From a virus (taxonomy: Duplodnaviria; Caudoviricetes), in IMG/VR virus record IMGVR_UViG_3300046779_001090, positions 1 through 35,159 of that record: a stretch of DNA of 35,159 bases. One strand, 5' to 3'. The translations under genes were made by a program, and so were the position numbers. This document shows, piece after piece, positions 19,800 to 35,159 of the stretch (position 1 is the first letter of the stretch; each line of letters begins with the position of its first letter). Under the pieces are notes generated by a model. The model saw only the letters and a program-made list of their open reading frames with translations. It was not told the DNA's origin and did no database searches.

Positions 19800-20018
19800 T
19801 TGGAGCAAGAGCAGATCCCTACTTGGGCGATTGAACTTATCAAACAGGTTGAACGCCTTAATGAGAAGATACCTACACACGTTGAGTGGGTTGAACGCAA
19901 CCTGAAAGATCACGAGAACCGTATCCGTACTTTAGAACAGTTCCGTTGGATGCTTTTAGGTATGGTTGGTCTTGCCGGTCTCCTTGGTGCAGTTATAACT
20001 AAACTTCTGGGGTTGTAA
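19800..20018 (+). CDS. coiled-coil plus TM protein (XhlA-like lysis accessory)
   Basis: KDHENRIRTLEQFRW followed by a C-terminal hydrophobic helix. Confidence 0.6.
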   Translation: MEQEQIPTWAIELIKQVERLNEKIPTHVEWVERNLKDHENRIRTLEQFRWMLLGMVGLAGLLGAVITKLLGL

Positions 20019-21206
20019 ATGTTGAAAGTCGCTAGATCTTTAGCGGCTACTACGCTGGCCTTCGGTTCTCTTTTTATTGCTTCTCCTGCACAGGCTTCTT
20101 GTGTGACAGTTCAGCAATCTCAAACTATTGCAGCTCTTGACACGGCTACTTCTGAGTCGGTTGTTAGGACTTTAGAAACTTGCGGTGGAGACGACATCTC
20201 TTACCAAGTTCCGCTTACTGTTGATGTGACTTTTGATGGTCAACAATTTTCAAGCGTTTACGCAACCACAAACTCGGTCATTACTTTTGGTAGACCAGAT
20301 AACACTTACTGGGATTACCCTGGCACACCTTCTATAAGCCTTTATTCAATGGACTGGGTTGTGTTCCCAGATCGTGGGGATGAACATCTCATTATTCAAA
20401 CTTCAGACGGTGGTTTCCGTGTTGACATTTCTGCGAGACCTTATGGTTTGTGGAATTATGTGGGCACTGCTCCTACCAGCATTATTATTACCGCCGCTAT
20501 TAACGCTGATGGTACTGTCGCTATTGCTTACGCCTTGAGTGGCCCTGAGTATCAGTCTCGTACTGGTGTGCGTTTGATTGATGGGTCTGTTGTGACTTTA
20601 GAGCAGTATGGGATTGTTCAGGTTGAGGAGCCTATCGTTTTGACTCCTGAGCCTGTCCAGCCAACACCGGAACCGACCCCTGAGCCAACTCCTGAGCCTA
20701 GCCCTGAGCCTACTCAAAGTCCTTCGCCAGAACCCACAGTATTACCACAACCGCCAGTAGTAGAACCAGCACCATACGTCCCTCCTGTCGAACCTACTCC
20801 TGAGCCTACCGTAGAACCTGAGCCGGAACCTGAGCCTTCTGTGCCTGTTGTCGAGCCAACACCTGAGCCTAGCCCAGAGCCTAGCCCTGAACCTGCACCG
20901 GAGCCGACAGTAGAACCAACTCCTGAACCAACAGTCGAGGAAACACTGGCTGTTCTCGCTGAGGAAGCAAAAGCCGATGATCCGGTTGTACCTCAAGAAA
21001 TAGCAGCCATTCCACTGATCGGTAACGCAGCTGTCGCCGTGTTAGAAGCCTTTAACGCTTTGGGCAACATTGGAGCCGACATGACACCTGAGGTTCGTGA
21101 ACAATCAGAAAAAGTTGTTATCTCTGCTGTTATTGCAGGGAACATTGCTACGACTGCTGTGGCGACAGCCTCAGTTTCATCTTCAACTGTTAGGAGAATA
21201 AAGTGA
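20019..21206 (+). CDS. exported Pro/Glu/Thr-rich surface protein
   Basis: Signal peptide ending A-Q-A, beta-rich domain, ~100 aa PTPE/PSPE linker, hydrophobic C-terminus ending RRIK. Confidence 0.75.
20643..20932 (+). repeat. degenerate 12 bp coding repeats ([12 protein letters not shown])
   Basis: Recurrent CCTGAGCC units within the exported-protein gene. Confidence 0.8.
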
Positions 21207-21367
21207 AAGACTTTCTGAATGACATTGTTGGGCAAATTTGGACACTTTTAGGTATGTTCGTTGCTTGGCTTGTTTTGGAGGGATCAGCAAAGACCGTGGT
21301 GGGCTGGTGCATTTTGGGCACTATGGCTGTTTGGGTTGCTACTTATCCGCTTCGCAATCGTGAGTAA
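21203..21367 (+). CDS. small two-TM membrane protein (54 aa)
   Basis: [54 protein letters not shown]; AGGAG RBS; GTGA overlap with the upstream stop. Confidence 0.75.
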
Positions 21368-21377
21368 AATTGTAGAC

Positions 21378-21524
21378 ATGAATCGTTTACCCCGTGCTAA
21401 GGCTGAAGCCGATAAGTGGGTGCGTTGGTGGTTTGCTGATAAGCCAAATACGCCTTTGGAGACGATTGAGAATGCTCGCCGTATTTTCATTGAAAAGTGG
21501 CTAGACAACTACAAGGTAAAATAG
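21378..21524 (+). CDS. hypothetical protein (48 aa, probably leaderless)
   Basis: MNRLPRAKAEADKW...; TAAAAT 7 nt upstream of the ATG. Confidence 0.6.
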   Translation: MNRLPRAKAEADKWVRWWFADKPNTPLETIENARRIFIEKWLDNYKVK

Positions 21525-21528
21525 ACCT

Positions 21529-21984
21529 ATGGCTAATTGGATGCAACCCTTCCCTGACTCTTGCAGGACAGACCCGTTTGGTGTTCACACTGAGGCTCGT
21601 AAAAAGGCTGGTCTTGGCCCTCACCGTGGAACGGATTGGGGTAAAGGCGTAAAGGGTAAATCTATCCCTGCTGTGACTTCAGGCAAGATTGAACTGATCA
21701 CTGAGTCTAAAGGTTTGGGCTGGGTACTTGTCCAGTCAAACGCTAACGGCAAACTATTTATTGGTTACTGCCACTTGAAGTCGAAGCCTACTTGGAAAGT
21801 TGGCGACACTATCAAGATGGGTCAGCGAATTGGCTTTGTAGGCAACACTGGTTCTTACTCTGCCGGTGACCACCTACACGCAACTCTTGGCCCTACAAGA
21901 GATTCTTACTCAAGCGGAAAAGTCTACGATCTACACGCTTACATTGCTAAACACATCGAGGCTTGGAACGCAAAAAATGCTTAA
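21529..21984 (+). CDS. endolysin, M23 peptidase
   Basis: HRGTD (HxxxD), YCHL, GNTG...GDHLH (HxH). Confidence 0.92.
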   Translation: MANWMQPFPDSCRTDPFGVHTEARKKAGLGPHRGTDWGKGVKGKSIPAVTSGKIELITESKGLGWVLVQSNANGKLFIGYCHLKSKPTWKVGDTIKMGQRIGFVGNTGSYSAGDHLHATLGPTRDSYSSGKVYDLHAYIAKHIEAWNAKNA

Positions 21985-22321
21985 ACTTCTAAAAGACATT
22001 GTTATCCGTTTTATTGGTGTAATCCTGTTCGCTTTCATTCCTGGCATGGCTGTTGGTGCTCCGACAGTGGGCTGGTTCTGGGGCGGTATCAATGGTGTGT
22101 TGACTGTTGCAGCTTCTATCGTTGTGTTCTTTGGTGTGCAGTTGGCGTGGGATGCTTCGATTACTCACGATGACATCGAAAAGGGTTTCCGAGCTGCTGT
22201 TGCAAAGCAAGCCGCTGAGAACAAGGACATTGCTGAAGCCGTTGAGACTTCTTCAGAGGACACCATTGACTTTGAGGACATTGGTGATTTAGCCGACTTG
22301 GACGGTCTAGACGAGGACTAA
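21977..22321 (+). CDS. holin
   Basis: Two or three TM segments and an acidic tail, overlapping the endolysin end; likely start ATG 21977. Confidence 0.7.
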   Translation: MLKLLKDIVIRFIGVILFAFIPGMAVGAPTVGWFWGGINGVLTVAASIVVFFGVQLAWDASITHDDIEKGFRAAVAKQAAENKDIAEAVETSSEDTIDFEDIGDLADLDGLDED

Positions 22322-22382
22322 ACCTTGTCTAGATTCTTGCAGTGGGCGATTATTAAACTGCTAAGTTTCCACGCATGGTGGA

Positions 22383-22682
22383 CTAATCGCTAGTTTTGTA
22401 TTTACGCCTTTTTGATTTCATGTCACGGCGATCTTCGGCACTTGTGCCACCCCAAATACCGTAGGGTTGGGCACTGACCACACCATAGGTGAAGCACTCT
22501 TTTAGCACAGGACACGTGCCACAAATGGCTTTGGCTTCTCGTGTCTCAAATTGTCGCTCGTTCCATTTAGGCTGATCTTCTGGGTAGAAGATGTGAGGAA
22601 CTTGCTCGCAGGGCACACCACCTTCATTCTCTATTGCTTTGTATAGGGCAATTAGGAGTCTGTCGTTAGTTGCGGCTGTCAT
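22383..22682 (-). CDS. whiB: WhiB-family Fe-S transcription regulator
   Basis: C..(FYP)..AKAICGTCPVLKEC..GIWGG..RR plus a basic tail; TACAGT -10 box 6 nt before ATG 22682. Confidence 0.95.
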   Translation of the reverse strand: MTAATNDRLLIALYKAIENEGGVPCEQVPHIFYPEDQPKWNERQFETREAKAICGTCPVLKECFTYGVVSAQPYGIWGGTSAEDRRDMKSKRRKYKTSD

Positions 22683-22732
22683 ACCCATACTGTATGTTGA
22701 TGAGTATCCAGTTGTCAAACTGAAAGGGAAAA

Positions 22733-23611
22733 ATGAGAAAAGGTAAAGTTTTTTCGGAGAAGGCAGAGTTTCTTGGCTTCTTTGAGAATCAGTCGCCTGA
22801 GTGGTATGAGATCCGTAAGGGTCGTATTGGTGGGTCTCAGATTGGTGCAGCTTTAGGGTTGTCACCGTGGGAATCACCTATTACTTGTTATTACAAGGTG
22901 CGTGGTGAGATTCCGGATACGGAAGCGTCTACTGCCATGCGTTTAGGTACGTTGTTGGAGGATCCGTTGTTGGAGTTGTTTCAACAAGAGAATCCGATGT
23001 TTGATGTGTTTAAGTCTGGGTCTTACATTTCTAAGTCTCATCCTTGGTTGTTGGCTAACCCTGATGCGTTTTATCGTGACGAGAAGGGTCGTTTGCATCT
23101 GATTGAGGTTAAGACGACAGCAGATTTTTGGGAGTCAGCGTCAGACATCCCACCTAACTACATTGCACAGATTCAGTCGTATTTGTGGTTATTTCAGATT
23201 GAACACGCTACCGTTGTAGCCCTGTGTGGTGGACGCTACAAGACTTTTGATGTGGAGTTTGACCAGTTCTTGGCTGAGGCTAATTTGTCGGCTCTACGCC
23301 GGTTCTGGGATCATGTTGAGGTTGGGTCTCAACCGGCTTGGGATGGTTCTGATTCGACTTATGAGACTATGAGGCGGTTGAAGCCTGAGATTCATGAGGA
23401 CGACATTGAGGAACTTGGTGATTTGGGTATGTATTTGGCTTTGGCAAAAGATGAGTTAGAGGTTGCTAAGAGCAAGTATCAGGAACTACAATCAAGAACA
23501 CTAGAGGCTATGGGCTCTGCTAAGTGGGGGGCGATCAATGATGACATTGTTTTGTTCCGTACTCAGCGTGGTGTTGGTGCACCGTACATTCAATGGAAAA
23601 AGGGAAAATGA
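22733..23611 (+). CDS. YqaJ / lambda-exonuclease-family recombination nuclease
   Basis: WYEIRKGRIGGS, GTLLE, ANPDA, IEVKT, YIAQIQ. Confidence 0.93.
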   Translation: MRKGKVFSEKAEFLGFFENQSPEWYEIRKGRIGGSQIGAALGLSPWESPITCYYKVRGEIPDTEASTAMRLGTLLEDPLLELFQQENPMFDVFKSGSYISKSHPWLLANPDAFYRDEKGRLHLIEVKTTADFWESASDIPPNYIAQIQSYLWLFQIEHATVVALCGGRYKTFDVEFDQFLAEANLSALRRFWDHVEVGSQPAWDGSDSTYETMRRLKPEIHEDDIEELGDLGMYLALAKDELEVAKSKYQELQSRTLEAMGSAKWGAINDDIVLFRTQRGVGAPYIQWKKGK

Positions 23612-23796
23612 TGACATTAAAGAAAGCACTTGCTATGAGTGTGGAGCATTTACTAAAGTGCAATTTAGTTCAAGCAGATTTCAATACAGCAGTGGTCGAA
23701 GATTTGAAAGTGATGCGTGAACGTATTGCTAGATTAGAGGCAATTTTAGATCTTCATGAAGAACGTTATGCAGCTCAAATAAAGAAAGGGAAATAA
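23608..23796 (+). CDS. hypothetical coiled-coil protein
   Basis: AAAGGGAA RBS, ATGA overlap. Confidence 0.6.
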   Translation: MMTLKKALAMSVEHLLKCNLVQADFNTAVVEDLKVMRERIARLEAILDLHEERYAAQIKKGK

Positions 23797-23979
23797 ATGG
23801 AAGAATACACAGTTGGCGAAACAGCCACTATTAATGGAATCACTGGAACTATTGTGGATGTCCGTGAGACAGACATGGAGCGTTTAGTGAAGATGGAAAC
23901 TGATACTAATAAGGTGTTGGTGTTTCGTTTTGTGAAGCGTGAGTTTCGCCCAGGTTTGAACGAATTGAGACTTGGCTGA
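23797..23979 (+). CDS. hypothetical protein (SH3-like beta pattern)
   Basis: GAAAGGGAA RBS; 60 aa. Confidence 0.6.
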   Translation: MEEYTVGETATINGITGTIVDVRETDMERLVKMETDTNKVLVFRFVKREFRPGLNELRLG

Positions 23980-24536
23980 TGGCAAACTTTAACCTTAATG
24001 ATTATGAGACCGTTGAACAGCGTCTCCACCGTGCTTATAAAGACCACCCGCTTATGCGTGTGATTACTAAGAATTTGACTACGCTTCAGGATCGTCAGGT
24101 TTCGACTTGGGTTGTTCAGGCAGAGATTTGGTTGCCTTATCCGGATGACATGGCTGAGGTTGCTTTGCGTTCTGACGGTTGGTATCTGAAAGCGACTGGT
24201 CTTGCGTTTGAAATTGATGGCGTGGGTATGGCTCAAAAGACTGCAGCTCTTGAGACCTGTGAGAGCAGTGCGATTGGACGTGCCTTGGCTAACGCAGGGT
24301 ATTCCGGCAATAAGAGGACTACTCGTGAGGAGATGGCTAAAGCCGAGCGTGGCGTAACACCGGCTCCTGCCCGTGACTGGCTAAAGATTGCTGAAGATCT
24401 GGCTTGGAAAGAAGATCTAGATGGCTTACGTGCTTTGTTTGTTGAAGCGTCTAGACTTAAAGCATCAGAGGACGTTCTGAACAAGATCAAGGAATTAGGT
24501 AATGGACATAAAGGATCTAAGGATTCTGCTAAGTAG
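23979..24536 (+). CDS. single-strand annealing protein (Rad52/ERF-like SSAP)
   Basis: YETVEQRL, ATGLAFE, LETCESSAIGRAL, TREEMAK; downstream of the YqaJ exonuclease. Confidence 0.65.
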   Translation: MANFNLNDYETVEQRLHRAYKDHPLMRVITKNLTTLQDRQVSTWVVQAEIWLPYPDDMAEVALRSDGWYLKATGLAFEIDGVGMAQKTAALETCESSAIGRALANAGYSGNKRTTREEMAKAERGVTPAPARDWLKIAEDLAWKEDLDGLRALFVEASRLKASEDVLNKIKELGNGHKGSKDSAK

Positions 24537-24717
24537 CATTATCGAACTTCGTGAGTTGTACGGCGAATTGGTTAATCCTGCTAATGGGGCTAACGGCACT
24601 ATGGCTGACATTATTCACGAGACTGGTATGGAGCGTCTAGAAAGGGTTGAGAGTGGCGAATACTACTCCGAGTGGGATCATAGAAGAATTACAGAGAATC
24701 CAAGCGGAAGCAGCTAA
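24502..24717 (+). CDS. hypothetical protein
   Basis: 71 aa ORF with an AAGGA RBS, overlapping its neighbours. Confidence 0.5.
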   Translation: MDIKDLRILLSSIIELRELYGELVNPANGANGTMADIIHETGMERLERVESGEYYSEWDHRRITENPSGSS

Positions 24718-24997
24718 GGGTGTTGGTGCTTTGTATGACGCTGAGGTGAAGTTGGCTGATGCTGAAGCAAAGTATGAACGTACTTTGGCTTTGACGTTCA
24801 TGGAGACCACTGATGGCACTGTGAAGGATAAAGAGGCTATTGCTAAGTTGAAGTCGGCTGATGATAAGTTGGCGGCTGATTTGGCTAGGGCTGAATACAA
24901 CCGGATAAAGTTGAAGTTGAAGCAGTTGGAGTTGGCTCAGATGAGCACTCAGACTATTGCTCGCATGATTGAAACGGAATTAAAGGTTCTTCGCTAA
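24647..24997 (+). CDS. helical coiled-coil protein (possibly UvsY-like recombination mediator)
   Basis: All-helical 116 aa in the recombination cluster; start uncertain. Confidence 0.45.
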   Translation: MRVANTTPSGIIEELQRIQAEAAKGVGALYDAEVKLADAEAKYERTLALTFMETTDGTVKDKEAIAKLKSADDKLAADLARAEYNRIKLKLKQLELAQMSTQTIARMIETELKVLR

Positions 24998-25128
24998 TGT
25001 GGCTTTTGGTGTTGTGGATTGCAGCTCTCATAGTTGGTATGTGGGCTACAACCGCATCTTTTCTCGCTTTTTTGTTTTGGTGCGAGATGAAAGTCATAGA
25101 AGTATTTGGTGAAGTAGATGATCTCTGA
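24997..25128 (+). CDS. small membrane protein (43 aa)
   Basis: MWLLVLWIAALIVGMWATTASFLAFLFWCEMKVIEVFGEVDDL; TAATG coupling. Confidence 0.55.
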   Translation: MWLLVLWIAALIVGMWATTASFLAFLFWCEMKVIEVFGEVDDL

Positions 25129-25333
25129 AGCGTGTTCGTGCGGGGCTAGTTTCCAGGCTGAACGGTCTGACGAGATTAAGTTGTTGAATCAGTGGCGTTC
25201 TAATCACAAGTGTCGCTCTGAGGGCAATCTTGCCATTATTGATAGTTCACGAGTGGAGACCGCCCCAGTTGGGTTTATGGCTACGGGTTTAGTTGATCCT
25301 GCGAGGAGTCCGGAGCCACCGTGGGAAGAATGA
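25118..25333 (+). CDS. hypothetical Zn-binding protein
   Basis: CSCG...WRSNHKC. Confidence 0.55.
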   Translation: MISEACSCGASFQAERSDEIKLLNQWRSNHKCRSEGNLAIIDSSRVETAPVGFMATGLVDPARSPEPPWEE

Positions 25334-25668
25334 GTCAGAAGCAGTGGGCTAAGTTCCTAGAACGGGATCTGGAGTGCCTACACTGCGGAACAAACGATAA
25401 TACTCTAGTACCGCAGCACCGGTCTAACAGGGGCATGGGCGGCTCTCACAAGAAGGACAAGCCGTCTAACATTATTGTTTTGTGCTCTTGGTTTAACTGT
25501 CAGATTGAGATGAGTGCTGAGGCTGCACGGCTCGCTAAGGGTATGGGCTGGAAGCTGGAGAACTGGCAAGACGCTGCGGCTATCCCTGTTTGGCAGAATG
25601 GCAAGTGGTATTTACTAGATGATGATTTTGGTAAAACTGAGTTGCCAAATTACGACTATCATTACTAA
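25330..25668 (+). CDS. HNH endonuclease-like protein
   Basis: RDLECLHCG..QHR..RGMGGS..NIIVLC..N. Confidence 0.75.
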   Translation: MSQKQWAKFLERDLECLHCGTNDNTLVPQHRSNRGMGGSHKKDKPSNIIVLCSWFNCQIEMSAEAARLAKGMGWKLENWQDAAAIPVWQNGKWYLLDDDFGKTELPNYDYHY

Positions 25669-25687
25669 ACTGTAAAAAAGGGGAATT

Positions 25688-26344
25688 TTGCTAGATCTAT
25701 TTACGGAAAAAAATAAAACATCTGCGTTTGCAGATTATGAAGTTATGGCAATACCAGCCTTAATTGGTAAAAAGTTCATTATTGAAAATCACTATTCAAA
25801 GGGTGTGCACAATGGGCCTATGTGCTTTGGTCTTTTAAAAGACGGAGAATTACAAGGGGTTTGTGCATTTGCTTCTCCAAGTTCTGAAAATGTAAGATCC
25901 AGTATTTTTGGCGAAGAATTTAAAGGCTCAGTAACAGAACTTCACAGATTGGTTTTATTGGATGAAGTACCTAAAAACGCTGAATCGTTCTTCATTGTTC
26001 GTGCCTTAAAAGAATTAAAAAAACAAAGACCGTACTACAAAGCAGTTATTAGTTTTGCAGACCCAACACAGAATCATTTAGGCATCATTTATCAAGCGAC
26101 AAACGCTATCTACTGTGGCACAAGTAGCCCTGCCACGTTCTATTTAGACGAGGATGGAAGATTACGCCACCCACGACAAAATGGCAAAAACATAACCGCT
26201 TCAATAGCAAAATCTTACGGATGGACTCCAACAAAACGACAAGGTAAACATAGATACGTCTATCTAATAGCGGAGAATAAAACAGAATTGAAAGAATTAA
26301 AAAGACTATTTAAGTTGGAAAGTTTGCCATATCCCAAAAGGTGA
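25688..26344 (+). CDS. mom: Mom-family (GNAT) DNA adenine-modification protein
   Basis: FIIENHYS, ELHRLVL...KNAESFFI, ISFADPTQNHLGIIYQATN match the Mom-like signature; AT-rich relative to neighbours. Confidence 0.8.
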   Translation: MLDLFTEKNKTSAFADYEVMAIPALIGKKFIIENHYSKGVHNGPMCFGLLKDGELQGVCAFASPSSENVRSSIFGEEFKGSVTELHRLVLLDEVPKNAESFFIVRALKELKKQRPYYKAVISFADPTQNHLGIIYQATNAIYCGTSSPATFYLDEDGRLRHPRQNGKNITASIAKSYGWTPTKRQGKHRYVYLIAENKTELKELKRLFKLESLPYPKR

Positions 26345-26352
26345 CCTATAAT
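26324..26352 (+). promoter_or_regulatory. sigma70/SigA promoter
   Basis: TTGCCA (26324-26329), 17 bp, TATAAT (26347-26352). Confidence 0.8.
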
Positions 26353-26358
26353 CAAATC

Positions 26359-26680
26359 TTCAAGCAGAGGTTCTTAAACCGTCAGACTGCTATAAAACTG
26401 GCTCTCGCTTCACAAGCGGAGATACTGGGCGTTAGAGGCCGTCAGTTTGGCATACCCGACACAGTGAAGCCTTAGATTTGGGTGAAAGTTTCTGAGAGTG
26501 GAACAGAGTTTAGTTGGCGGTGCTACTTCGTATCTACCTAGCATCCTTGCAGTTGGCTAAACACATGGCGTAGATAGTCTTACCCGTGAGGATAGACCCA
26601 TTAGAAAACCTGACAGTCCTTATACCTGTGGTTTGAGATGGTCGTCTAGGCCATTTCTACCCTCTTGAGCCTTTCCCTGT
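26359..26680 (+). ncRNA. putative large structured non-coding RNA
   Basis: ORF-free, directly behind a consensus promoter; about 10 nested helices with G-U pairs and a 7 bp pseudoknot (TATCTAC 26531-26537 / GTAGATA 26570-26576). Confidence 0.7.
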
Positions 26681-26697
26681 GATTACGCTACGCTTGT

Positions 26698-26979
26698 GTG
26701 GTGGATGATAATCGGGTTTTGTGTAAGAGGTGTGGCCTTTCGTGGGAGGTTCCTCTGGTTAAACGCCGTCAGCAGGTGGTGTTGTGTGTGTCGTGTCGTA
26801 TGCGTCCTGCTTTGAGTATTCAGTATGGTTCGTCTCGGTGTGTGCCTTGGCGTGGTGATTTTGATCTTGAGGATAATCCGATGGTTGCGGGTGGTTTGTT
26901 GTTGCCTGGGGTTCGGTTGTGTGGGCATCGGGATTGTGTGAATCCTCATCATATTGAACTTGTCGTTGATGGGGAGTAG
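26698..26979 (+). CDS. Zn-finger protein with an HNH-like Zn-binding loop
   Basis: CKRC..CVSC ribbon, CVPWRG, CGHRDCVNPHH; possible leaderless start GTG 26701. Confidence 0.65.
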   Translation: MVDDNRVLCKRCGLSWEVPLVKRRQQVVLCVSCRMRPALSIQYGSSRCVPWRGDFDLEDNPMVAGGLLLPGVRLCGHRDCVNPHHIELVVDGE

Positions 26980-27023
26980 TGTTGTAGTACCCTGACTTGT
27001 TCAGGACTATGGAAAGAGCTGCT

Positions 27024-27431
27024 ATGGCTAAGTGTGATATTACGGTTCGTGGGAATCTTGGGGCTGATGTTGAGTCTAAGGTTTCTAAGGCTGGCAAGAT
27101 GTATTATGTGCTGCGTGTTGGGTCTACTCCTTCTAAGAAGAACGCTTCTGGTGAGTGGGAGAATGGCGAGACTATGTGGTTTAATGTGACTTCTTTTGAG
27201 GAGTTGAATCCTTTTGAGTTTGTGAAGGGTACTCCTGTTGAGGTTCATGGTTCGTTTGTGTTTAGGACTTATGCGAAACGTGATGGGTCTTTGGGTGTTG
27301 CGTTGGATGTTGTTGCTAACAAGATTGAGCGTGTTGTTCGTGAGCAGAAGAAGGTTGATTTTAAGGAGCAGGATTTGATTCCTGAGTCTTGGACTCCTAT
27401 TTCTGTGCACATGGATGATGCACCTTTTTAA
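27024..27431 (+). CDS. ssb: single-stranded DNA-binding protein
   Basis: ITVRGNLGAD, TMWFNVT, KGTPVEVHG, acidic DDAPF tail. Confidence 0.93.
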   Translation: MAKCDITVRGNLGADVESKVSKAGKMYYVLRVGSTPSKKNASGEWENGETMWFNVTSFEELNPFEFVKGTPVEVHGSFVFRTYAKRDGSLGVALDVVANKIERVVREQKKVDFKEQDLIPESWTPISVHMDDAPF

Positions 27432-27860
27432 TTGAAGGATTTATTTTTCTTCGTTGACGGTTCTCCTGCACCGCAAGGGTCTAAGACGGCTTATGTGCGT
27501 GGTGGGAGAGCCGTTCTCGTTGAGGCTAATAAGAGGCTTCCGGAGTGGCGTTTGGCTGTTACTGATGCAGCTCGTCAGGCGATGCATGATTTGGAGCAGG
27601 TTGTTCCGTTTGATCAGCCGATTCGTTTAGAGGTCACGTTTTTTATTGCTCGTCCTGCTAAACCTAAGCATCCTGTTTATCCTGGCTCTAAACCGGATTT
27701 AGATCATTACATTCGTGCCGTAGGCGATTCGTTGACTCGTGCCGGTGCGATTGTTGATGATTCTTTGATCGTGGACATTGTGGCTAAGAAGCGTTGGTGT
27801 GGGTCTACTACTGATACTTACCCGACTCCTGGGGCGAAGGTGTTTATAACGGTTGTGTAA
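27432..27860 (+). CDS. rusA: RusA-like Holliday junction resolvase
   Basis: PAPQGSK, KPDLDHYIRAVGDSL, DDSLIV. Confidence 0.92.
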   Translation: MKDLFFFVDGSPAPQGSKTAYVRGGRAVLVEANKRLPEWRLAVTDAARQAMHDLEQVVPFDQPIRLEVTFFIARPAKPKHPVYPGSKPDLDHYIRAVGDSLTRAGAIVDDSLIVDIVAKKRWCGSTTDTYPTPGAKVFITVV

Positions 27861-27876
27861 CGGCTCGTGTCGTAAG

Positions 27877-27906
27877 TTGACTTGCACCGCTTTCTTACCA
27901 TAGATT
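27877..27906 (+). promoter_or_regulatory. sigma70/SigA promoter
   Basis: TTGACT, 18 bp, TAGATT in an intergenic gap, followed by a GAAAGGGAA RBS. Confidence 0.65.
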
Positions 27907-27936
27907 TGGTTATACGGCAAGAGAAAGGGAAAGCAA

Positions 27937-28230
27937 ATGCCTAGAGCAAGAAAAACAGATCCGTACACATCACATGATGCAGCTCGGTCTGTTAAGAATT
28001 TTACTGAGGTTCAGACGGTTATTTATGAACTGTTGAATACTCCTATGACGGATGAGGATTTGGTTCCTCAGTATGAGCAGTTGATGAATTTTGGTACTGC
28101 ACCTATGGCTTCGCCGTCTACTATTCGTACGGCTCGTCATCATTTGGTTGATAAGGGTTTTGTTATTGATGTTGGTGAGGGTCAGTCTCGGTTTGGTCGT
28201 AAGGCTTTGATTTGGGGGCGTAGACGATGA
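27937..28230 (+). CDS. winged-helix DNA-binding protein
   Basis: ARKTDPYTSHDAA N-terminus; TDEDL..STIRTARHHLVDKGFV..GRKALIW. Confidence 0.7.
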   Translation: MPRARKTDPYTSHDAARSVKNFTEVQTVIYELLNTPMTDEDLVPQYEQLMNFGTAPMASPSTIRTARHHLVDKGFVIDVGEGQSRFGRKALIWGRRR

Positions 28231-28451
28231 ATCAGGAGATTGAGAAAGCAATTATTGATCAAATTAATAAGGTTTGGGAACAGGCTTTGAAGGTTGGCAT
28301 TTCTGATGAGCGGGAACGCATTATCAAATTGCTAGATAAGCACGAATGGTTTGAACAAGGCGAAAAAGATGAAGTCTTAGGAATACTTGACGGCACTTAT
28401 CAATGTGAATGTATTGGCTGTAAACAACTTATCAAGGGAGAAACAAAATGA
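28227..28451 (+). CDS. hypothetical protein (ERERIIKLL motif)
   Basis: ATGA-coupled small ORF with CEC..C. Confidence 0.6.
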   Translation: MNQEIEKAIIDQINKVWEQALKVGISDERERIIKLLDKHEWFEQGEKDEVLGILDGTYQCECIGCKQLIKGETK

Positions 28452-28627
28452 ACATACATGGATTCTTTGAAAATCAAACTTGTGAACAATACCTACCTAA
28501 AAAGAAACACAAACTAATCGGCTTAATAGCTCAATGTGAAGAATGTCGAGAATATTATGTTTTAAGGACTAATTACACTGCACTTATTTGGCGACCAGCA
28601 TCTGGAGCAAAGGAAAAAATTAAATGA
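28448..28627 (+). CDS. hypothetical protein (59 aa, CEEC)
   Basis: MNIHGFFENQTCEQ...; AAGGGAG RBS; ATGA overlaps at both ends. Confidence 0.6.
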   Translation: MNIHGFFENQTCEQYLPKKKHKLIGLIAQCEECREYYVLRTNYTALIWRPASGAKEKIK

Positions 28628-28809
28628 GCACACCTATTTTTGATGCTGTTAAAGCACAGTTCGATGACGCTATTGCCTCAGCAGAACAACGAGCAACACT
28701 AGAAATAAAGACCAAAGTTTTAGACACGTTGAAGCCTTTGAAGTCTAAGACCGCAGCTGTAAAAAGTTTGATTGAGGAGTTGGAAAATGGAACTGATGCA
28801 GGTAAGTAA
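28624..28809 (+). CDS. hypothetical protein
   Basis: 61 aa, AAGGA RBS. Confidence 0.6.
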   Translation: MSTPIFDAVKAQFDDAIASAEQRATLEIKTKVLDTLKPLKSKTAAVKSLIEELENGTDAGK

Positions 28810-28975
28810 GCAAGGGTTCCTTCGGGCTCTTGAGGAGGGTATGTCTGAGGCTAGGGCTGATGAGCGTATGCGTATCGCTAATTTGGTTGAGGACATGATT
28901 CACGAGGATTTGCCTGGTGGGTACATTGTGTTGTTGCGTCAGGTGCGGGACAAGATCATTTCGGGAGGAAACTAA
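28787..28975 (+). CDS. hypothetical protein
   Basis: GAGGAG RBS before ATG 28787; DERMRIANL resembles the motif in 28227-28451. Confidence 0.55.
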   Translation: MELMQVSKQGFLRALEEGMSEARADERMRIANLVEDMIHEDLPGGYIVLLRQVRDKIISGGN

Positions 28976-29220
28976 TGAAGGTAACAGTTTGGACTAAGAG
29001 TTCGTGTGTGCAGTGTGACATGACTAAGAAGCAGTTTGACAAGTTGGGCATTGTTTATGAGGAGCAGTCTCTTGAGGAGAACCCGCTTGTTTTGGAGGGC
29101 TTTAAGGCTCAGGGGCTTCTTGCAGCTCCGATTGTGACTACTGATACTAAGGCTTGGTCTGGGTTCCGGTTGGACAAGATTCAGTCGTTGGCTCGTCACC
29201 TAAAGAGCGTAGGCGAGTGA
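28975..29220 (+). CDS. nrdH: NrdH-like glutaredoxin
   Basis: VTVWTKSSCVQC, APIV, WSGFRLDKI. Confidence 0.93.
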   Translation: MKVTVWTKSSCVQCDMTKKQFDKLGIVYEEQSLEENPLVLEGFKAQGLLAAPIVTTDTKAWSGFRLDKIQSLARHLKSVGE

Positions 29221-29306
29221 CACAAGGTTTGGGCTGGTTCATGATCTGCATGGGACTGGCTTTAGCAGTTGTAATTATTGAACTTATAAGGAGAAACAAT
29301 GAGTGA
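29217..29306 (+). CDS. tiny membrane peptide (29 aa)
   Basis: MTQGLGWFMICMGLALAVVIIELIRRNNE; GTGA overlap; fills the gap. Confidence 0.45.
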   Translation: MTQGLGWFMICMGLALAVVIIELIRRNNE

Positions 29307-29463
29307 CATTTCTGAAAGGGAAGCGGCTCTGCTAATGGTAGAGATGCGACTTCAGTTGTTAGAGATTGGGCTGAATAGCCTGAACAAGATTATTGATGAG
29401 TGTGCCAAGTCTGTTGATGAGATGGAGAAGGCTGTTAAGGAGATTTATGGATCCCGTGATTGA
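29299..29463 (+). CDS. hypothetical coiled-coil protein (54 aa)
   Basis: AAGGAG RBS; MSDISEREAALLMVEMRL... Confidence 0.65.
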   Translation: MSDISEREAALLMVEMRLQLLEIGLNSLNKIIDECAKSVDEMEKAVKEIYGSRD

Positions 29464-29635
29464 GCAAGCGATGGAGTTGCTGGAGTCACCTAATTTGGTT
29501 TGGTCAGCAGACTTTGATCACATTCGTCACCACTTGTGGGCGATTCTTAAAGAAGAACAACGCAGCTATGCACCGTATGAGGCTACAAGAAACTTATGCG
29601 AAGCATTACTAGAGGAATTTCCTGTTAACCGATAG
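29447..29635 (+). CDS. hypothetical protein
   Basis: AAGGAG RBS before ATG 29447 (MDPVIEQ...). Confidence 0.6.
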   Translation: MDPVIEQAMELLESPNLVWSADFDHIRHHLWAILKEEQRSYAPYEATRNLCEALLEEFPVNR

Positions 29636-29644
29636 GGTTGAACT

Positions 29645-29875
29645 ATGAGCATTTTAAAAGGGATGACCCCACCGGTCAGAATCCGTGTTTGTCGTATTGA
29701 AGAAGTAGCCAAAGGGCTTGGTAAGGAAGATGCGGAGATTCTTCGGAACGCTGTCGTTGATCCTGCTTGGTCTGTGAACGCCTTGATTTCGGCGTTGTCG
29801 GCTCGTGGCGTTTTGTTGTCTAGGACAAGTCTTGAGCGTCACCGTGGAAAGCGTTGCCCGTGCTCGAAGATCTGA
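29645..29875 (+). CDS. small HTH-like / Zn-binding protein
   Basis: LISALSARGVLLSRTSLERHRGKRCPC; leaderless-type TAGGGT 6 nt upstream. Confidence 0.6.
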   Translation: MSILKGMTPPVRIRVCRIEEVAKGLGKEDAEILRNAVVDPAWSVNALISALSARGVLLSRTSLERHRGKRCPCSKI

Positions 29876-31029
29876 CACCAGCCTCAAAGGTTGATGTTCC
29901 TAAAGACTGGCGACCTGCTGTCGAGTTCAATGGGTCTGAGGGTGAAGCCACTACGCAGGGCTTTTTACCTGATGAGAAACCCGACTTTGACAAGTTCTTA
30001 GTTGAGGCTGGATTTGATCCGGCTGAGATTGAGATTGTTGGAGAACCTAGAACTAGCCGATGGCAGGTTGCCCGACCTTTCCCTCTTGATCCGCAGTGGT
30101 TGACGGCGTATAGGTTCCGGTTCCGTAAGAAGGGTGTCTTTGAGACGGATTTGCCTACTTTGTACGCTCAGGCTAAGAAGGCTGTGCCTAAACCGGTTAG
30201 GTCTGGTGTTGATGGTAAAGCGTTTGTGATTGTGGCCGCTGACTTTCAGGTTGGCAAGGTTGGGTCTAGGGGTAATACTCAGGATTTGGTTGCTCGTGTG
30301 TTTGAGTCTTATAAGGCTATTGAGGCGAAACTTAAAGCGGGCAAGTATGAGAAGGTCATTATTGTTGACGCTGGGGACATTATTGAGTCTGTGTCTAATC
30401 AGGCTTCTATGGCACAGTTGGAATCAAACGACCTGAGCCCGATGCAACAGGTGGATTTGGCAGCTGCTTTGATGTGGGATCTGATCAAGATTGCTCACAA
30501 GTACGCACCAGTCACTTACGCCTCTGTAGCGTCTAACCACTGCCAGTTCCGGTTCAACGGTCAAACAGTTGGTAAGCCAGGTTTGGACGACTGGGGCATT
30601 GTTATTCTCCAGCAACTTCGCCGTCTAACAACCGAACTCGGTATGGATGTCAATTACCTGATTCCACAACCGTATGACGAATCGCTCGCATTTGACGTAT
30701 GGGGCGATAACTTTCACGTTTTGGCAGTAGCACACGGTCATCAGGCTAAACGCCCTAACAGCGTCCAACAGTGGCTGGAGAAGCAAGCATTTGGTCAAGG
30801 GCCATGCTCAAACTTCACTACTTTCATTTCTGGTCACTTTCACCACCTCAGGGTTGAGGAAATTGGTCAGGCACACAACGGAGGATCTCGGTGGTGGGTT
30901 CAAGCCTCAACAAGCGATAACGGTTCTGATTGGTTTCGTCTAATGTCAGGAAATGACTCCAGTACGGGCATTACTTGTTTTGAACTGGTTAAGGGTTTGC
31001 ACTTTAAGGGCACAGTATATAAACTGTAA
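29854..31029 (+). CDS. calcineurin-like metallophosphoesterase (Mre11/SbcD-like fold)
   Basis: ADFQVGK, GDIIE, SNH, HGH, GHFHH metal-binding motifs. Confidence 0.85.
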   Translation: MPVLEDLTPASKVDVPKDWRPAVEFNGSEGEATTQGFLPDEKPDFDKFLVEAGFDPAEIEIVGEPRTSRWQVARPFPLDPQWLTAYRFRFRKKGVFETDLPTLYAQAKKAVPKPVRSGVDGKAFVIVAADFQVGKVGSRGNTQDLVARVFESYKAIEAKLKAGKYEKVIIVDAGDIIESVSNQASMAQLESNDLSPMQQVDLAAALMWDLIKIAHKYAPVTYASVASNHCQFRFNGQTVGKPGLDDWGIVILQQLRRLTTELGMDVNYLIPQPYDESLAFDVWGDNFHVLAVAHGHQAKRPNSVQQWLEKQAFGQGPCSNFTTFISGHFHHLRVEEIGQAHNGGSRWWVQASTSDNGSDWFRLMSGNDSSTGITCFELVKGLHFKGTVYKL

Positions 31030-31042
31030 GAAAAGGGGATTT

Positions 31043-31300
31043 ATGTGTTCAGTAGAGAATTGCAGTAGAAACAAATACACTCGTGGGCTGTGTCAAGCAC
31101 ACTACATGGCGGCTTATCGTGTCAGAAAATCTGGTTTGTCAAAATCTGGTTTAGATCCGGCTATAAATCTGGTTGTTGCCGAAAAATTTGGTTCAAAAAT
31201 CTGCTCGGAGTGTGCAGCTCCTGTGCATGGCAAAGGGTTATGTGGGACGCATTACGCCAGGTTGCTACGGGCGAGAAAGAAGCAAAATGAAACTGTATAA
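31043..31300 (+). CDS. tandem C3H zinc-finger protein
   Basis: Two C..C....GLC..HY units; AAGGGG RBS before ATG 31043. Confidence 0.65.
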   Translation: MCSVENCSRNKYTRGLCQAHYMAAYRVRKSGLSKSGLDPAINLVVAEKFGSKICSECAAPVHGKGLCGTHYARLLRARKKQNETV

Positions 31301-31511
31301 GGTTTATAGGGCATACAAGCGTGGGGTTGAAACCGAACGTACTCGTTGTATCAACGTTGTTAAAGATGTTTTTAATGGCATAGAAACTTACGATATTGAA
31401 TTGATGCTTGAAATTAGAGCTCGGGTAGATAAAGCACTTGGTGAGATTTCTTTGATTGGTGATTTAAAGGGCACTGGTTTGGAAACCCCTATTAAAACTG
31501 AAAAAAGGTAA
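31287..31511 (+). CDS. hypothetical protein
   Basis: MKLYKVYRAYKRGVETERTRCI...; fills the gap. Confidence 0.55.
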   Translation: MKLYKVYRAYKRGVETERTRCINVVKDVFNGIETYDIELMLEIRARVDKALGEISLIGDLKGTGLETPIKTEKR

Positions 31512-31513
31512 AA

Positions 31514-31687
31514 ATGCCGGTCTATGACTTTAAGTGTGAGTGTGGGAAAACAAACACGCTAACCGTTGGTTTCAGAGAAATTGATGGGTTTCAGTGCCGG
31601 TGTGAGTGTGGCAAATTGATGACACGCCAGTACGGTGTTGGAGCCATTACCTTTAAGGGATCTGGTTGGGGCAAGGATAAGAACTAG
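31514..31687 (+). CDS. FmdB-like zinc-ribbon protein (57 aa)
   Basis: MPVYDFKCECG...CECGKLMTR...FKGSGW. Confidence 0.85.
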   Translation: MPVYDFKCECGKTNTLTVGFREIDGFQCRCECGKLMTRQYGVGAITFKGSGWGKDKN

Positions 31688-32013
31688 TGGGTCGTTTTCC
31701 TAAACCTTGTGCTGATTGTGGTGTGTTAACTTCTGGTGGTAATCGGTGCGACTATCACGAAAATTTGGTTAAAAAACTTCACGACATTAAACGGGCTGAG
31801 GTTAAGAAAAATTCTGGTCAGTATTCTGGTTCTTATCGGGCTAGAGCTGCGGCTGTTCGTGCAAGTGCTTTGGTGTGTTGGTTGTGTGGTGAGGGTGCTC
31901 GTGCTGGGGATCCTTGGGAAGCGGATCACGTTATTCCGGCAGAATCTGGTTCGACAGCGGAGTTGAGAGCTGCACATCGGACTTGTAATCGTAAGCGGTC
32001 AAATCTGGTTTGA
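31687..32013 (+). CDS. HNH endonuclease (packaging-associated, HK97 gp74-like)
   Basis: KPCADCG, CWLCG, ADHVIP, AAHRTCNRKRS. Confidence 0.85.
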   Translation: MGRFPKPCADCGVLTSGGNRCDYHENLVKKLHDIKRAEVKKNSGQYSGSYRARAAAVRASALVCWLCGEGARAGDPWEADHVIPAESGSTAELRAAHRTCNRKRSNLV

Positions 32014-32140
32014 AAATTTGGTCAGAAAAAATTTGGTCAAAATCTGGTTAAAAAATTTGGTTGGAAAAAATCTGGTCAAAATCTGGTTGGAAAATTTGGT
32101 CAAAATTTGGTCAAAATCTGGTCAAAATCTGGTCAAAAAT
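32001..32140 (+). repeat. array of 11 AAAT(C/T)TGGT repeats, ~11-15 bp spacing
   Basis: Counted directly; the last copies form exact 11 bp CAAAATYTGGT tandem units. Confidence 0.95.
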
Positions 32141-32163
32141 CACGATGACGGACAAAAATCGGC

Positions 32164-32224
32164 TCGAACAGGTGTTCGTTTGTCAAGCCCCTGTTGATAA
32201 CTATTTATTCGAACAGGTGTTCGG
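32164..32224. promoter_or_regulatory. two LexA (SOS) boxes, actinobacterial type
   Basis: TCGAAC-AGGT-GTTCG at 32164-32178 and 32209-32223; consensus TCGAAC-N4-GTTCGA. Confidence 0.75.
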
Positions 32225-32262
32225 TGGATAAGTCTGCGGATAACTTAACCGCTTGTGGATAA
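32192..32262 (-). promoter_or_regulatory. cluster of four co-oriented DnaA boxes
   Basis: TGTTGATAA 32192, GGTGGATAA 32223, TGCGGATAA 32235, perfect TGTGGATAA 32254 (reverse complement TTATCCACA). Confidence 0.75.
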
Positions 32263-32403
32263 CTTAAAACATGTCTAAGCGTGGCAGTGCATGAGTTACG
32301 AGCTAGGCACGAGAGCCGATAGCATGGCAACCACCGCCGGCCTATGGCCTAAATGTAATGAGTTGACCGTTACCTAATTGTTATAAAAAATGAACGTTCA
32401 AAC

Positions 32404-32433
32404 TTGACACTTATAGCGTTTTTTTACTAATCT
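32404..32433 (+). promoter_or_regulatory. strong sigma70/SigA early promoter
   Basis: TTGACA, 18 bp, TAATCT with an AT-rich upstream tract; hairpin CCTAGTAA/TTGCTAGG downstream. Confidence 0.75.
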
Positions 32434-32478
32434 ATTCCTAACCTAGTAAATTGCTAGGCGTGAATAAAGGGGTAAAAC

Positions 32479-32637
32479 GTGAAGCTAATCAGACTAATAG
32501 GCATAAGTGCCGCTGTAGGCCTAATTTTAGGCTTTATAGATAACCTAACCGACCGTAACCTAGCCGCTATTTTAGGCGTGTCTCTAATCTTAGGCGGCCT
32601 AATTCTTATCGTGAAAATGGAGCGTAAAAATGACTAA
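32479..32637 (+). CDS. small two-TM membrane protein (52 aa)
   Basis: MKLIRLIGISAAVGLILGFIDNLTDRNLAAILGVSLILGGLILIVKMERKND; AAGGGG RBS. Confidence 0.7.
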   Translation: MKLIRLIGISAAVGLILGFIDNLTDRNLAAILGVSLILGGLILIVKMERKND

Positions 32638-33367
32638 CGTAACCGCTCAGAAAATTGCCGACATGCTAACCGAAAACACTGGCGGCTCGATGCTCGACTC
32701 CGGCGGCTATTACGGCCGCCACTGGGAGCGTAACGCCGGCAAAACGGTTGCAGACTTTGAGAGTGCACCGGCCGGCACTATAGATGAATATGGTGAGATT
32801 ACGCTCGACCTATTCCATTACCTAAACGACCGCTTAGAGTACGCCCCGGCCCTAGATGCCGCATGGTCAAAATATGATGGTGATCACCCTAATGAATCAT
32901 GGAGCCACAACATAGAGACATTTTTAGACATGCTAGGGGTTGCCAGTGACTCAGGATATTACGAGGGTGGCCGCTGGGGGTTCAACACTTATAACTTTGG
33001 AAATTGTCTACTTAGTCAAACTATCCAAAGTACAGCGTTTAGCTTAGGTAATACCGAATATCTTATTTTGCAAGTGCACGGCGGTTGTGACGTACGAGGT
33101 GGATATACTAAGCCGGTCATTTTCACTGGAGATATTGAGTCGGTAATCTGCGGCGTAAGTGATGCCATGCTCCGATGCAGTGAGTGTGAGTTTTATATCG
33201 ACTATTGCGATGGTCAAGTCAACTATTACGAATTACCCGATGCTGAAGCTACGCCGGATATGCTAATCGAGCTAACCGTACCCCGTGAGTGGGAGCCATC
33301 CGATGACTGGCATGCCGGTAACGGTTGCCCTATTGACCACAAGCCGCTAATCGTACAAGGGAGATAA
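32630..33367 (+). CDS. hypothetical early protein (acidic, C-terminal Cys cluster)
   Basis: 245 aa; MLTENTG..LDSGGYYGRHWERN, QVHGGCDVRGGYT. Confidence 0.75.
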   Translation: MTNVTAQKIADMLTENTGGSMLDSGGYYGRHWERNAGKTVADFESAPAGTIDEYGEITLDLFHYLNDRLEYAPALDAAWSKYDGDHPNESWSHNIETFLDMLGVASDSGYYEGGRWGFNTYNFGNCLLSQTIQSTAFSLGNTEYLILQVHGGCDVRGGYTKPVIFTGDIESVICGVSDAMLRCSECEFYIDYCDGQVNYYELPDAEATPDMLIELTVPREWEPSDDWHAGNGCPIDHKPLIVQGR

Positions 33368-33372
33368 CCAAA

Positions 33373-33948
33373 ATGGAGCCAATTACAACACACGATATAA
33401 ACGACACGACACGCCTAGCCGCCTACCTTGATTATGGCACTTATGACTGGAGCGAGCTAACGGGCGATGGTGTCGGAATTTACACGCTTGATATTGCTCG
33501 CAACTTAGGCATTACTAATGGCGGCCAGTGCACGGATGACCTTGACCGTCTAACCCGTGACCTTGACCGTGACCGCTGGGAGCGAGCTATCGGCCTATAT
33601 ATGCACCTAGCTAACCGGACATATAAAACGCTGGCATTACGTGGCTACTCGCAGGGTGAGTGGGCCGATGTTATTGTCTATGCCGATGCCGGCCCTAATG
33701 GTGAATGGCTAAATAGTAAAAATGCCACCGCCGATATTGAGGCATGGTTCAGGGGGGACATTTACACGGTGGCCCTTGAGTCGCTAGAGACTTACGTCAA
33801 CGCTAAAAATGGCGACACTTTGCAACGCTGGGAGATTACCGAATCATGCGGCATGGTAACCCTATCGAATGACTATACGCTGGCCGATGCCGGCCGTGAC
33901 ATATTCGGCAGTGATGCAGTGGCTAAAAATGAGTTGATCAACTCATGA
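33373..33948 (+). CDS. hypothetical early protein (acidic)
   Basis: 191 aa; RGYSQGEW and WFRGDIY motifs. Confidence 0.75.
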   Translation: MEPITTHDINDTTRLAAYLDYGTYDWSELTGDGVGIYTLDIARNLGITNGGQCTDDLDRLTRDLDRDRWERAIGLYMHLANRTYKTLALRGYSQGEWADVIVYADAGPNGEWLNSKNATADIEAWFRGDIYTVALESLETYVNAKNGDTLQRWEITESCGMVTLSNDYTLADAGRDIFGSDAVAKNELINS

Positions 33949-34226
33949 AGTCACAAGATTACACGGTCACAAGCTGGGCCGATGGTTACGGTAATTGGCA
34001 TGCTAAAGCAACCTTTACCGTACCGCTAGGCAACACGGGTGAAGCTGAGAGAGTGGCCGAAAATGCCCACCGCTCATGCCGCCGTGTTATACGTAATGAA
34101 ATAAGTTACCGGATGGCCGGCCGGCCACGCCGCCTATCGTATTACGTGAGTGCCAATGAGTTTGAGCCAGGAATCGGCCGGCTCAAGTCAATAACAATAA
34201 GTGAACAGATAAGGGGTAAAAAATAA
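33945..34226 (+). CDS. hypothetical early protein
   Basis: 93 aa, ATGA coupling. Confidence 0.65.
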   Translation: MKSQDYTVTSWADGYGNWHAKATFTVPLGNTGEAERVAENAHRSCRRVIRNEISYRMAGRPRRLSYYVSANEFEPGIGRLKSITISEQIRGKK

Positions 34227-34227
34227 A

Positions 34228-34563
34228 ATGAGTAATTACACGTTTATAAGTGGAGACACTTACGAGGTAACCGCCGGCAGTGTTGTTGAAGCTGAGGGAA
34301 TTATCAGCGACTATCTGAGTGGCAACCTAGCCAATAGTGATGCAGTGACCGCCGGCGAAACTAACACGGTAATTTATAGCATCGAGACCGAATCGGGGTT
34401 CGAGCCTAATCAGCTTCATTACTCGATGGATGAACTAGGAGTTTGCTACGATACGGACCACCTAATCATGCTATTTCAAGAGTTGCTGGATGATGGTTAT
34501 ACGGGCCTAAGTTTCGGGTTAGTTATTGACCTTATAAAGTCAAGACTGGAGCCGGTGGCCTAG
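34228..34563 (+). CDS. hypothetical early protein (very acidic)
   Basis: 111 aa, AAGGGG RBS. Confidence 0.65.
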   Translation: MSNYTFISGDTYEVTAGSVVEAEGIISDYLSGNLANSDAVTAGETNTVIYSIETESGFEPNQLHYSMDELGVCYDTDHLIMLFQELLDDGYTGLSFGLVIDLIKSRLEPVA

Positions 34564-34670
34564 TGGATAAGTATCTCAAAACGATAGGAGCCGGATGGTT
34601 GTATATCGTGCTCGTGTCTATCGGCGTAATGGCCGACCAAACTAATAAAACTATTCGCAAGAATTACTAA
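34563..34670 (+). CDS. tiny membrane peptide (35 aa)
   Basis: MDKYLKTIGAGWLYIVLVSIGVMADQTNKTIRKNY; TAGTG coupling. Confidence 0.5.
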   Translation: MDKYLKTIGAGWLYIVLVSIGVMADQTNKTIRKNY

Positions 34671-34685
34671 AGGGAGTAAATAAAA

Positions 34686-35126: not shown

Positions 35127-35159
35127 CCTAACTAACCGCTCCACCGCTAACCCCTGAGC

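Follow-up and report, generated by a model that had tools for sequence, protein, structure and literature searches.

Many tailed phages carry no recognisable replication genes, which raises the question of how their replication starts. The window, i.e. the whole stretch of 35,159 nucleotides that was analysed, is a complete siphovirus of 35 kb (CheckV 100%) with WhiB, RecE-like exonuclease, ssb and rusA genes. PHROGs and Pfam searches of it found no helicase, primase, polymerase or integrase, in line with the first-pass annotation, which had recognised no initiator, helicase or primase. Between a Mom-like gene and the gene of a 92-aa Cys/His protein the window harbors a non-coding gap (26345-26697), read in that annotation as a large, promoter-driven, structured RNA placed where replication genes would normally be found. 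The gap and its surroundings comprise the following features.

25321..25668, + strand: HNH gene, 115 aa, PHROG 740, the upstream neighbour in RNA-type and helicase-type phages
25688..26344, + strand: Mom-like DNA modification gene, 37% GC, missing from the closest relatives, outside the element
26324..26352, + strand: sigma-70/SigA-type promoter, -35 box 26324-26329, -10 box 26347-26352
26359..26681, + strand: predicted ncRNA of ~320 nt, its start set from the -10 box and its 3′ end placed at repeat copy 2
26698..26979, + strand: Cys/His-rich (Zn) protein of 92-93 aa with a degenerate HNH-like tail, the slot marker in both module types
27024..27860, + strand: ssb and rusA, located downstream of the slot

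The promoter noticed before the gap is indeed the top sigma-70 match within 20000-35159 (11/12), and its position is kept in 24/33 homologues, where a -10/-35 pair scoring at least 7 lies directly upstream of the RNA, as compared with 4.6% of random positions. Across homologues 8-18 nt separate the promoter from the last base of the 5′ strand of the first helix, P1. No ORF accounts for the gap; the longest closed + strand ORF per homologue is 18-66 aa. In the window, a terminator scan found no intrinsic terminator after the ncRNA and a promoter scan found no promoter-like site on the minus strand over it. Among cultured phages, the gene that follows the gap finds its best match in Pontimonas phage phiPsal1, and the host is therefore likely to belong to the Microbacteriaceae.

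The -35 box lies within the final codons of the Mom-like gene, which is missing from close relatives. Comparison of window positions 25688-26344 with the same position in L024, L025, L034, L066, L067 and L092 depicts an exchange hot spot before the RNA, occupied by Mom-like, HNH, GIY-YIG or DNA methylase genes or by none, at which the -10 box is constant and the -35 box comes from whatever sequence adjoins upstream.

Relatives retrieved via the neighbouring genes retain the gap, and in distant relatives it is conserved above the flanking ORFs. Pattern scans followed by an nhmmer filter yielded 33 full sequences, namely the window, 20 from IMG/VR and 12 metagenome contigs, with identities of 42-100% (median 53%) and three pairs of near-copies; with one truncated member, L126, and two members found later, L446 and L457, the total is 36 loci (35 homologues and the window). 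Twelve of 120 metagenome pattern matches were true (37/64 parts scanned) and none of 120 in prokaryote genomes (49/64 parts scanned). The RNA was found in 0/151 host-family genomes, taken from the family to which a Rathayibacter genome belongs; this search scored only 27 candidates in each and included no positive control. Blastn with five members against 50,697 phage records gave no cultured carrier. Each carrier genome holds one copy of the RNA. Four sequencing runs labelled RNA-seq consist of contigs and are probably DNA; genes and gap are covered alike.

Rfam 15 gave no match for the window and, for seven homologous loci, only chance miRNA or snoRNA matches (E 2-6) and no ribozyme match. 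A group I intron was considered and rejected on the grounds that Intron_gpI was not matched, that the GACUG/UAGUC pair is not conserved and that the element lies between genes behind its own promoter and interrupts none. The literature search, with most subscription papers outside its reach, found no description of this RNA. The viral candidates of Fremin 2023 (PMC10690425) measure 29-151 nt, and single hairpins of the present RNA may be among the IMG/VR candidates of that study. With the covariation described below, the element is most likely an RNA and represents a real and new, previously uncatalogued family of phage ncRNAs, as judged from sequence comparison; the undescribed large structured RNA of the first-pass annotation is borne out in this respect.

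All 15 sequence motifs checked from that annotation are located where it placed them, and most of its helices (P1/P2, P4, P6, P7, P8, P9 and P12) show compensatory changes among homologues. The fold consists of these elements.

26363..26391, + strand: P1 (26363-67/26387-91) and P2 (26369-72/26377-80), separated by an internal loop of 1x6 nt (GUYVGV); covariation
26402..26445, + strand: P4 (26402-10/26414-21) and P5 (26425-30/26438-45), the loop of the latter, 26431-37, being 7 nt long and conserved; covariation
26453..26504, + strand: P6 (26453-59/26478-84) and the P7 hairpin (26488-92/26500-04); covariation
26508..26576, + strand: long stem P8 (26508-18/26552-62 and 26519-25/26539-45), whose loop makes the pseudoknot 26531-39/26567-76
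26577..26597, + strand: P9 hairpin with GNRA tetraloop; covariation, loop taken from the alignment
26635..26657, + strand: P12 hairpin separating the repeat copies, paired in 31/31 with 18 versions

Covariation was scored on plain MAFFT alignments with shuffled and slid controls. In the 5′ domain (30/33 rows) 91.3% of cells are paired and 16/23 pairs show two-sided changes, with a covariation score of 0.63 as compared with 0.19 for shuffled and at most 0.10 for slid alignments. The domain of P8, pseudoknot and P9 (28/33 rows, L034 and L236 being among those omitted) has 83.1% of cells paired, two-sided changes in 24/32 pairs and a score of 0.44 versus 0.23; slid controls are far lower in both domains. 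An independent check is provided by P1, of which the search pattern set only the first three bases of one strand: P1 has at least 5 bp in 31/31 true but in 2/231 chance pattern matches. P6 pairs in 33/33 sequences in 21 versions, and P7 is supported in 21/21. The proposed pseudoknot forms all six pairs in 31/33 homologues in 11 versions (random hexamers, 1.6%) and is extended by 2 bp beyond a conserved bulged C (26569) in 31/33. A GNRA loop closes P9 in most members, as judged by eye, and the G-U pairs that had suggested RNA are frequent as G-U and U-G cells kept on the + strand.

Three helices of the initial fold lack support. The helix 26395/26441 gives way to the covarying pairing of 26425-30 with 26438-45, ATGG/CCAT competes with the pseudoknot extension and lacks support, and the closure 26484/26671 is likewise not supported, repeat copy 2 having no covarying RNA partner. 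A long-range closure exists, though in a different register, in which the P7 region covaries with the 3′ linker 26657-26669 (own -12.8 versus shuffled -10.4 kcal/mol, a difference that kinship may inflate); P7 may thus alternate between the local hairpin and pairing with the 3′ linker. Folding energy, proposed at the outset as a possible refutation, is no better than in shuffled controls for the single window sequence (z +0.37, 64/100 shuffles equally good); the best local folding window reaches z -2.1 only, and crude z values for 17 members range from +0.3 to -6.0. As evidence for a conserved structure, the covariation seen across the homologous sequences overrides ordinary folding energy.

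Two architectures are found: that of the window has a large P6 loop, and in the other (13/33) GTCAA can pair with a later (T/G)(T/G)GAC. In L446 (~2430-2790, minus strand) the 5′ domain differs, without a match to P1-P4, while P5-P12, pseudoknot and repeat are intact, which suggests that the 5′ domain is modular. Furthermore, a CGTYAG-like motif is common to the P1/P2 internal loop (26379-26385) and the P5 loop (26430-26437 region) in most members, a possible repeated tertiary or protein-binding motif.

In order to see what related phages carry at this position, 106 viral loci were collected by alignment of the Zn protein, the best 80 of these were kept, and gene families were assigned by Pfam. 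Among these best 80 of 106, 12 carry the RNA only and 68 carry an HTH initiator and/or DnaB (57 HTH_36 initiator plus DnaB, 10 DnaB only within the flank, one initiator only); none has both modules and none has neither. None of the 24 RNA-bearing records that were searched contains DnaB_C; 10 of these records are at least 90% complete (two of the 10 only ~16 kb), and 2/2 positive controls gave the domain. HTH_36 occurs in one of the 24 (G027), in truncated form. Conversely, the RNA 5′ domain was found in 2/2 controls and in none of the 46 of 68 protein-initiated records that were searched genome-wide, five of them at least 90% complete. A further 87 ORFs from seven other near-complete RNA genomes and the window include no helicase, primase or polymerase. 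The cultured relative Pontimonas phage phiPsal1 possesses RepO and a replisome organizer upstream and gives no R1 match; its Zn-protein homologue (L387, 5001-5243) is unannotated in GenBank. The placement of the gap in the initiator/helicase slot, initially based on the usual gene order of siphoviruses, is thereby shown directly by relatives carrying these genes there.

The module types cluster on the Zn-protein tree, and the 12/68 split therefore does not amount to 80 independent events; the module label changes four times on this tree (bootstrap 3-4), of which well-supported branches force one only. L034 and L066 possess different RNA subtypes and repeat versions together with Zn proteins identical at 84/91 positions, and this pair is, at the level of sequence, direct evidence of cassette exchange. 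In G022 and G024, which also bear the RNA, head or terminase genes did not cluster with those of the window. A special case is G027, a 16-kb record in which a 117-aa N-terminal stub matches positions 1-107 of the 196-position O-like initiator family.

L389, 10879-11229 and 13410-13753, opposite strands: O-like initiator of G027, truncated and at its usual position, and the RNA of this record

No helicase was found in G027, and its RNA, on the opposite strand from the stub, converges with the early operon. The arrangement fits a transition state in which the protein module decays after gain of the RNA; a chimeric contig is the alternative, and both are possible. Judged by these genome comparisons, the RNA stands in for the genes of the initiator and the DnaB helicase within this group of phages, a non-coding module of ~0.35 kb lying in the slot that otherwise has ~1.9 kb of protein genes.

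The Zn gene itself is present in 68/68 protein-initiated loci (best 80 of 106), gave no tblastn match in the RNA-bearing G027 and does not adjoin the RNA in L446. The predicted model of its product (pLDDT 75, pTM 0.47) has no Foldseek match at E<=0.001, and the protein falls into unnamed viral clusters of the atlas with a weak HNH_3 lead. The RNA as a scaffold for the adjacent Zn protein, another initial proposal, is disfavoured by the Zn gene in helicase types, by G027 and L446, and by the 84/91 identity across RNA subtypes. In some helicase-type phages (L030 and L045, upstream of the Zn gene; L044, L047, L054, L060 and L064) an insert between helicase and Zn gene encodes either SAM synthetase or a fusion of ABC-ATPase and GNAT.

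The 3′ part of the element contains a two-part direct repeat, the copies of which flank P12.

26618..26630, + strand: first repeat copy (copy 1), a putative guide inside the RNA, located in the loop region of P10/11 and made up of box A (26618-21) and box B (26625-30) with 3 nt between them
26670..26681, + strand: second repeat copy (copy 2), made up of box A (26670-73) and box B (26676-81) with 2 nt between them; the R-loop is proposed to form on its template strand

In the 3′ alignment the copies are 51-61 nt apart, and in the window the repeat pattern occurs at these two places only (0.17 expected). Box B is the same in both copies in 25/31 anchored rows, where the copy-2 anchor constrained 3/6 positions and 2/33 rows were dropped for lack of it; of these two, L034, anchored by hand, also agrees between copies and L236 is cut short. 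Counted as distinct box B pairs, 8/12 are exact, compared with 0.9 in shuffles and a maximum of five in 20,000. For box A, the final three bases match between copies in 31/31. New box versions are present in both copies of L446 and L457 (CGGCTA; CGGATAG), which were found by patterns not using box B; box A of L446 has one mismatch between copies. Thus the repeat varies in sequence while its two copies remain matched to each other.

An RNA partner covarying with the repeat was not found inside the RNA (p=0.84 in one test, all p>0.06 in another). A third RNA strand pairing with both copies was rejected on this basis, as such a strand should covary and none does; a DNA-binding protein reading the repeat should change with it, and the Zn protein remains constant (84/91 identical). 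Nor does the window beyond 19.5 kb encode any ORF that every RNA genome shares and both helicase genomes lack. The simplest reading is that copy 1 RNA would pair with the template strand of copy 2, because this strand covaries automatically and no other partner does. Of the four distinct mismatch types, three have G in copy 1 and A in copy 2, an asymmetry that stems from three events; such G/A mismatches would be tolerated as an rG-dT wobble only with copy 1 as the invading strand. The predicted seed is short (~3-4 plus 6-9 bp) and less G-rich than that of ColE1.

From the exclusion of initiator and helicase genes and from the covarying direct repeat, the ColE1 RNA II-like primer considered in the first-pass annotation gains comparative support, and we regard it as probable that the RNA acts as such a pre-primer, copy 1 invading the template strand of copy 2 to form an RNA-primed origin. 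Host RNA polymerase would transcribe the element, the RNA folding during synthesis into P1-P9, pseudoknot and P12 with P7 pairing to the 3′ linker. The fold would hold copy 1 beside the polymerase while copy 2 is transcribed, the P7-3′ linker pairing closing it as copy 2 is made, and copy 1 RNA would then pair with the template strand at copy 2 and seed an R-loop that persists. Host Pol I would be primed by the end of the RNA, either after trimming by host RNase H or as the polymerase leaves it, and on the displaced strand the host PriA restart pathway would load the host helicase, aided by phage SSB. The steps of RNase H, Pol I and PriA follow the background of ColE1 replication and replication restart. 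An origin role of the element in some form is highly likely. The more specific view of a protein-free, self-guided RNA initiator, with a changeable guide of 10-13 nt, swapped as a cassette with initiator and helicase and reprogrammable via two short repeats, we consider an even call.

Sequence composition around the element was inspected as well. GC skew gives no consistent signal at the RNA; G/T skew downstream is higher in RNA types (0.36/0.29 versus 0.22/0.06), values that are not independent of ancestry. At 10-40 nt past copy 2 in L123, L130, L135, L136, L157 and L181, GTTAC/GTAAC motifs and an AT-rich tract are followed by a promoter, and could be an unwinding element or an operator.

The slot exchange would be explained equally well by an origin acting as folded single-stranded DNA, i.e. 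a primosome-assembly or single-strand origin that transcription would expose and in which the repeats would serve as sites on the DNA, and according to Weinberg 2017 (PMC5737381) plasmid motifs such as GEBRO could act as ssDNA. However, RNA is indicated by the G-U/U-G cells on the + strand, by the GNRA loop in P9 and by the promoter 8-18 nt before the last base of the 5′ strand of P1; the repeat varies next to a Zn protein that is 84/91 identical, and beyond 19.5 kb the window has no ORF found in all RNA genomes but in neither helicase genome. This explanation appears unlikely. Similarly low in probability is a cis-regulatory leader, antiterminator or ribozyme, with the repeats as alternative partners of one strand (a switch or two processing sites) in phages that replicate by recombination using RecE-like exonuclease, SSB and RusA. 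It accords with predicted transcription into the downstream genes, no terminator following the RNA, with the two pairing options of P7, with partial complementarity to copy 2 in single members and with the resemblance of the bulged-C pseudoknot to a tertiary pocket. Against this, no third strand covaries, the downstream content varies between Zn gene, ssb, AT-rich promoter region and converging operon, and the absence of loci with neither module (best 80 of 106) would be left unexplained.

A trans-acting or protein-bound RNA, perhaps a domesticated HEARO/omegaRNA-like scaffold recruiting the phage HNH protein or host replisome parts, is suggested by a core order which by eye resembles the Rfam HEARO consensus, including a long stem whose inner loop pairs with GGCG just 3′, and by the GTCAA..GAC closure in 13/33 members. 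Yet the HEARO model gives no match at E<=10, HMM cross-searches against 21 HEARO sequences yield no signal above shuffles in either direction, no IscB/TnpB-like gene is annotated, and HNH and Zn genes are also present in helicase-type phages, which renders the scaffold very unlikely. That the element is a selfish or neutral passenger whose insertion displaced the replication genes is scarcely credible: its upstream position is a hot spot of mobile genes (Mom, HNH, GIY-YIG, methylases), but it is present in one copy per genome, its fold is kept down to 42% identity, it is conserved above flanking ORFs in distant relatives, and 0/120 prokaryote pattern matches and 0/151 host-family genomes carry it.

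In comparison with known systems, the probable RNA-primed origin shares with ColE1/pMB1 RNA II a replicon without Rep and an internal stretch complementary to the downstream template; its conserved promoter and fold would correspond to the promoter-driven structured pre-primer of ColE1. In ColE1, internal RNA of the pre-primer pairs with the downstream template strand (PMC4412123; PMC12966454), an rG stretch and a dC stretch of the template forming a persistent hybrid that primes replication, as outlined in PMC4412123. Unlike ColE1, the carrier is a tailed phage and not a plasmid, the RNA has ~320 nt, and in place of a G run the predicted seed is a two-part repeat of variable sequence; homology to RNA II/RNA I was not found with Rfam or with plasmid blastn of one subtype (L137), which gave no plasmid match and none to ColE1 or MRB origins. 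Antisense control by an RNA I, as in ColE1, may also be absent, the window scan having revealed no promoter-like site on the minus strand over the RNA. Origins of MRB (marine RNA-based) plasmids are likewise ORF-free with a long RNA II and no Rep, and ColE1 and MRB plasmids are described as Rep-less, RNA-initiated replicons (PMC3035462); MRB origins, however, belong to Vibrionaceae plasmids under RNA I control, and no similarity to the phage RNA was found. If the model holds, the phage RNA would work by analogy like ColE1/MRB RNA II without being a member by sequence.

The plasmid motifs ARRPOF, GEBRO and PAGEV are covarying structures of 220-350 nt in replication regions, and ARRPOF lies within a fragment that replicates without rep (PMC5737381). 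They do not match the phage RNA in Rfam at E<=10, and the passage on them describes no swap with initiator or helicase genes; within the account given there, ARRPOF is the nearest comparative precedent. T4 encodes its own helicase and polymerase, whereas the present phages conserve a folded RNA and no primase, helicase or polymerase genes were found in them. The T4 origins oriF and oriG resemble the proposed origin in combining a phage promoter with a persistent RNA-DNA hybrid, but employ a DNA-unwinding element, and T4 encodes its own primase (PMC4412123). HEARO/omegaRNA (RF02033) is of similar size with a stem-plus-pseudoknot core, by eye. Descent from it was rejected, as the two share no statistical similarity; moreover, the phage RNA has no adjacent IscB/IsrB ORF (Zn protein, ssb or none being downstream) and a fixed hairpin domain at the guide position. 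The lambda O-like initiator (HTH_36) plus DnaB module occupies the same slot, from the HNH gene to the Zn-protein/ssb/rusA genes, and differs in being protein-coding and mutually exclusive with the RNA.

An RNA interchangeable with initiator and helicase would offer a testable answer to the question of replication start for one group of freshwater/wastewater actinophages, and the covarying repeat supplies the classic compensatory-mutation test in advance. If true, the proposal would furthermore supply a protein-free origin, compact at ~0.4 kb, for use in Actinomycetota vectors, a large and new RNA fold to be studied structurally, and a search recipe for other phages, namely non-coding islands that exclude initiator genes.

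Two further observations concern the gene content of the carriers. The RNA-bearing G024 encodes an RNA ligase and polynucleotide kinase pair (L393, 16729-18605), and the window contains glycosyltransferase and nucleotidyltransferase-like genes within its head-tail block (8571-10821).
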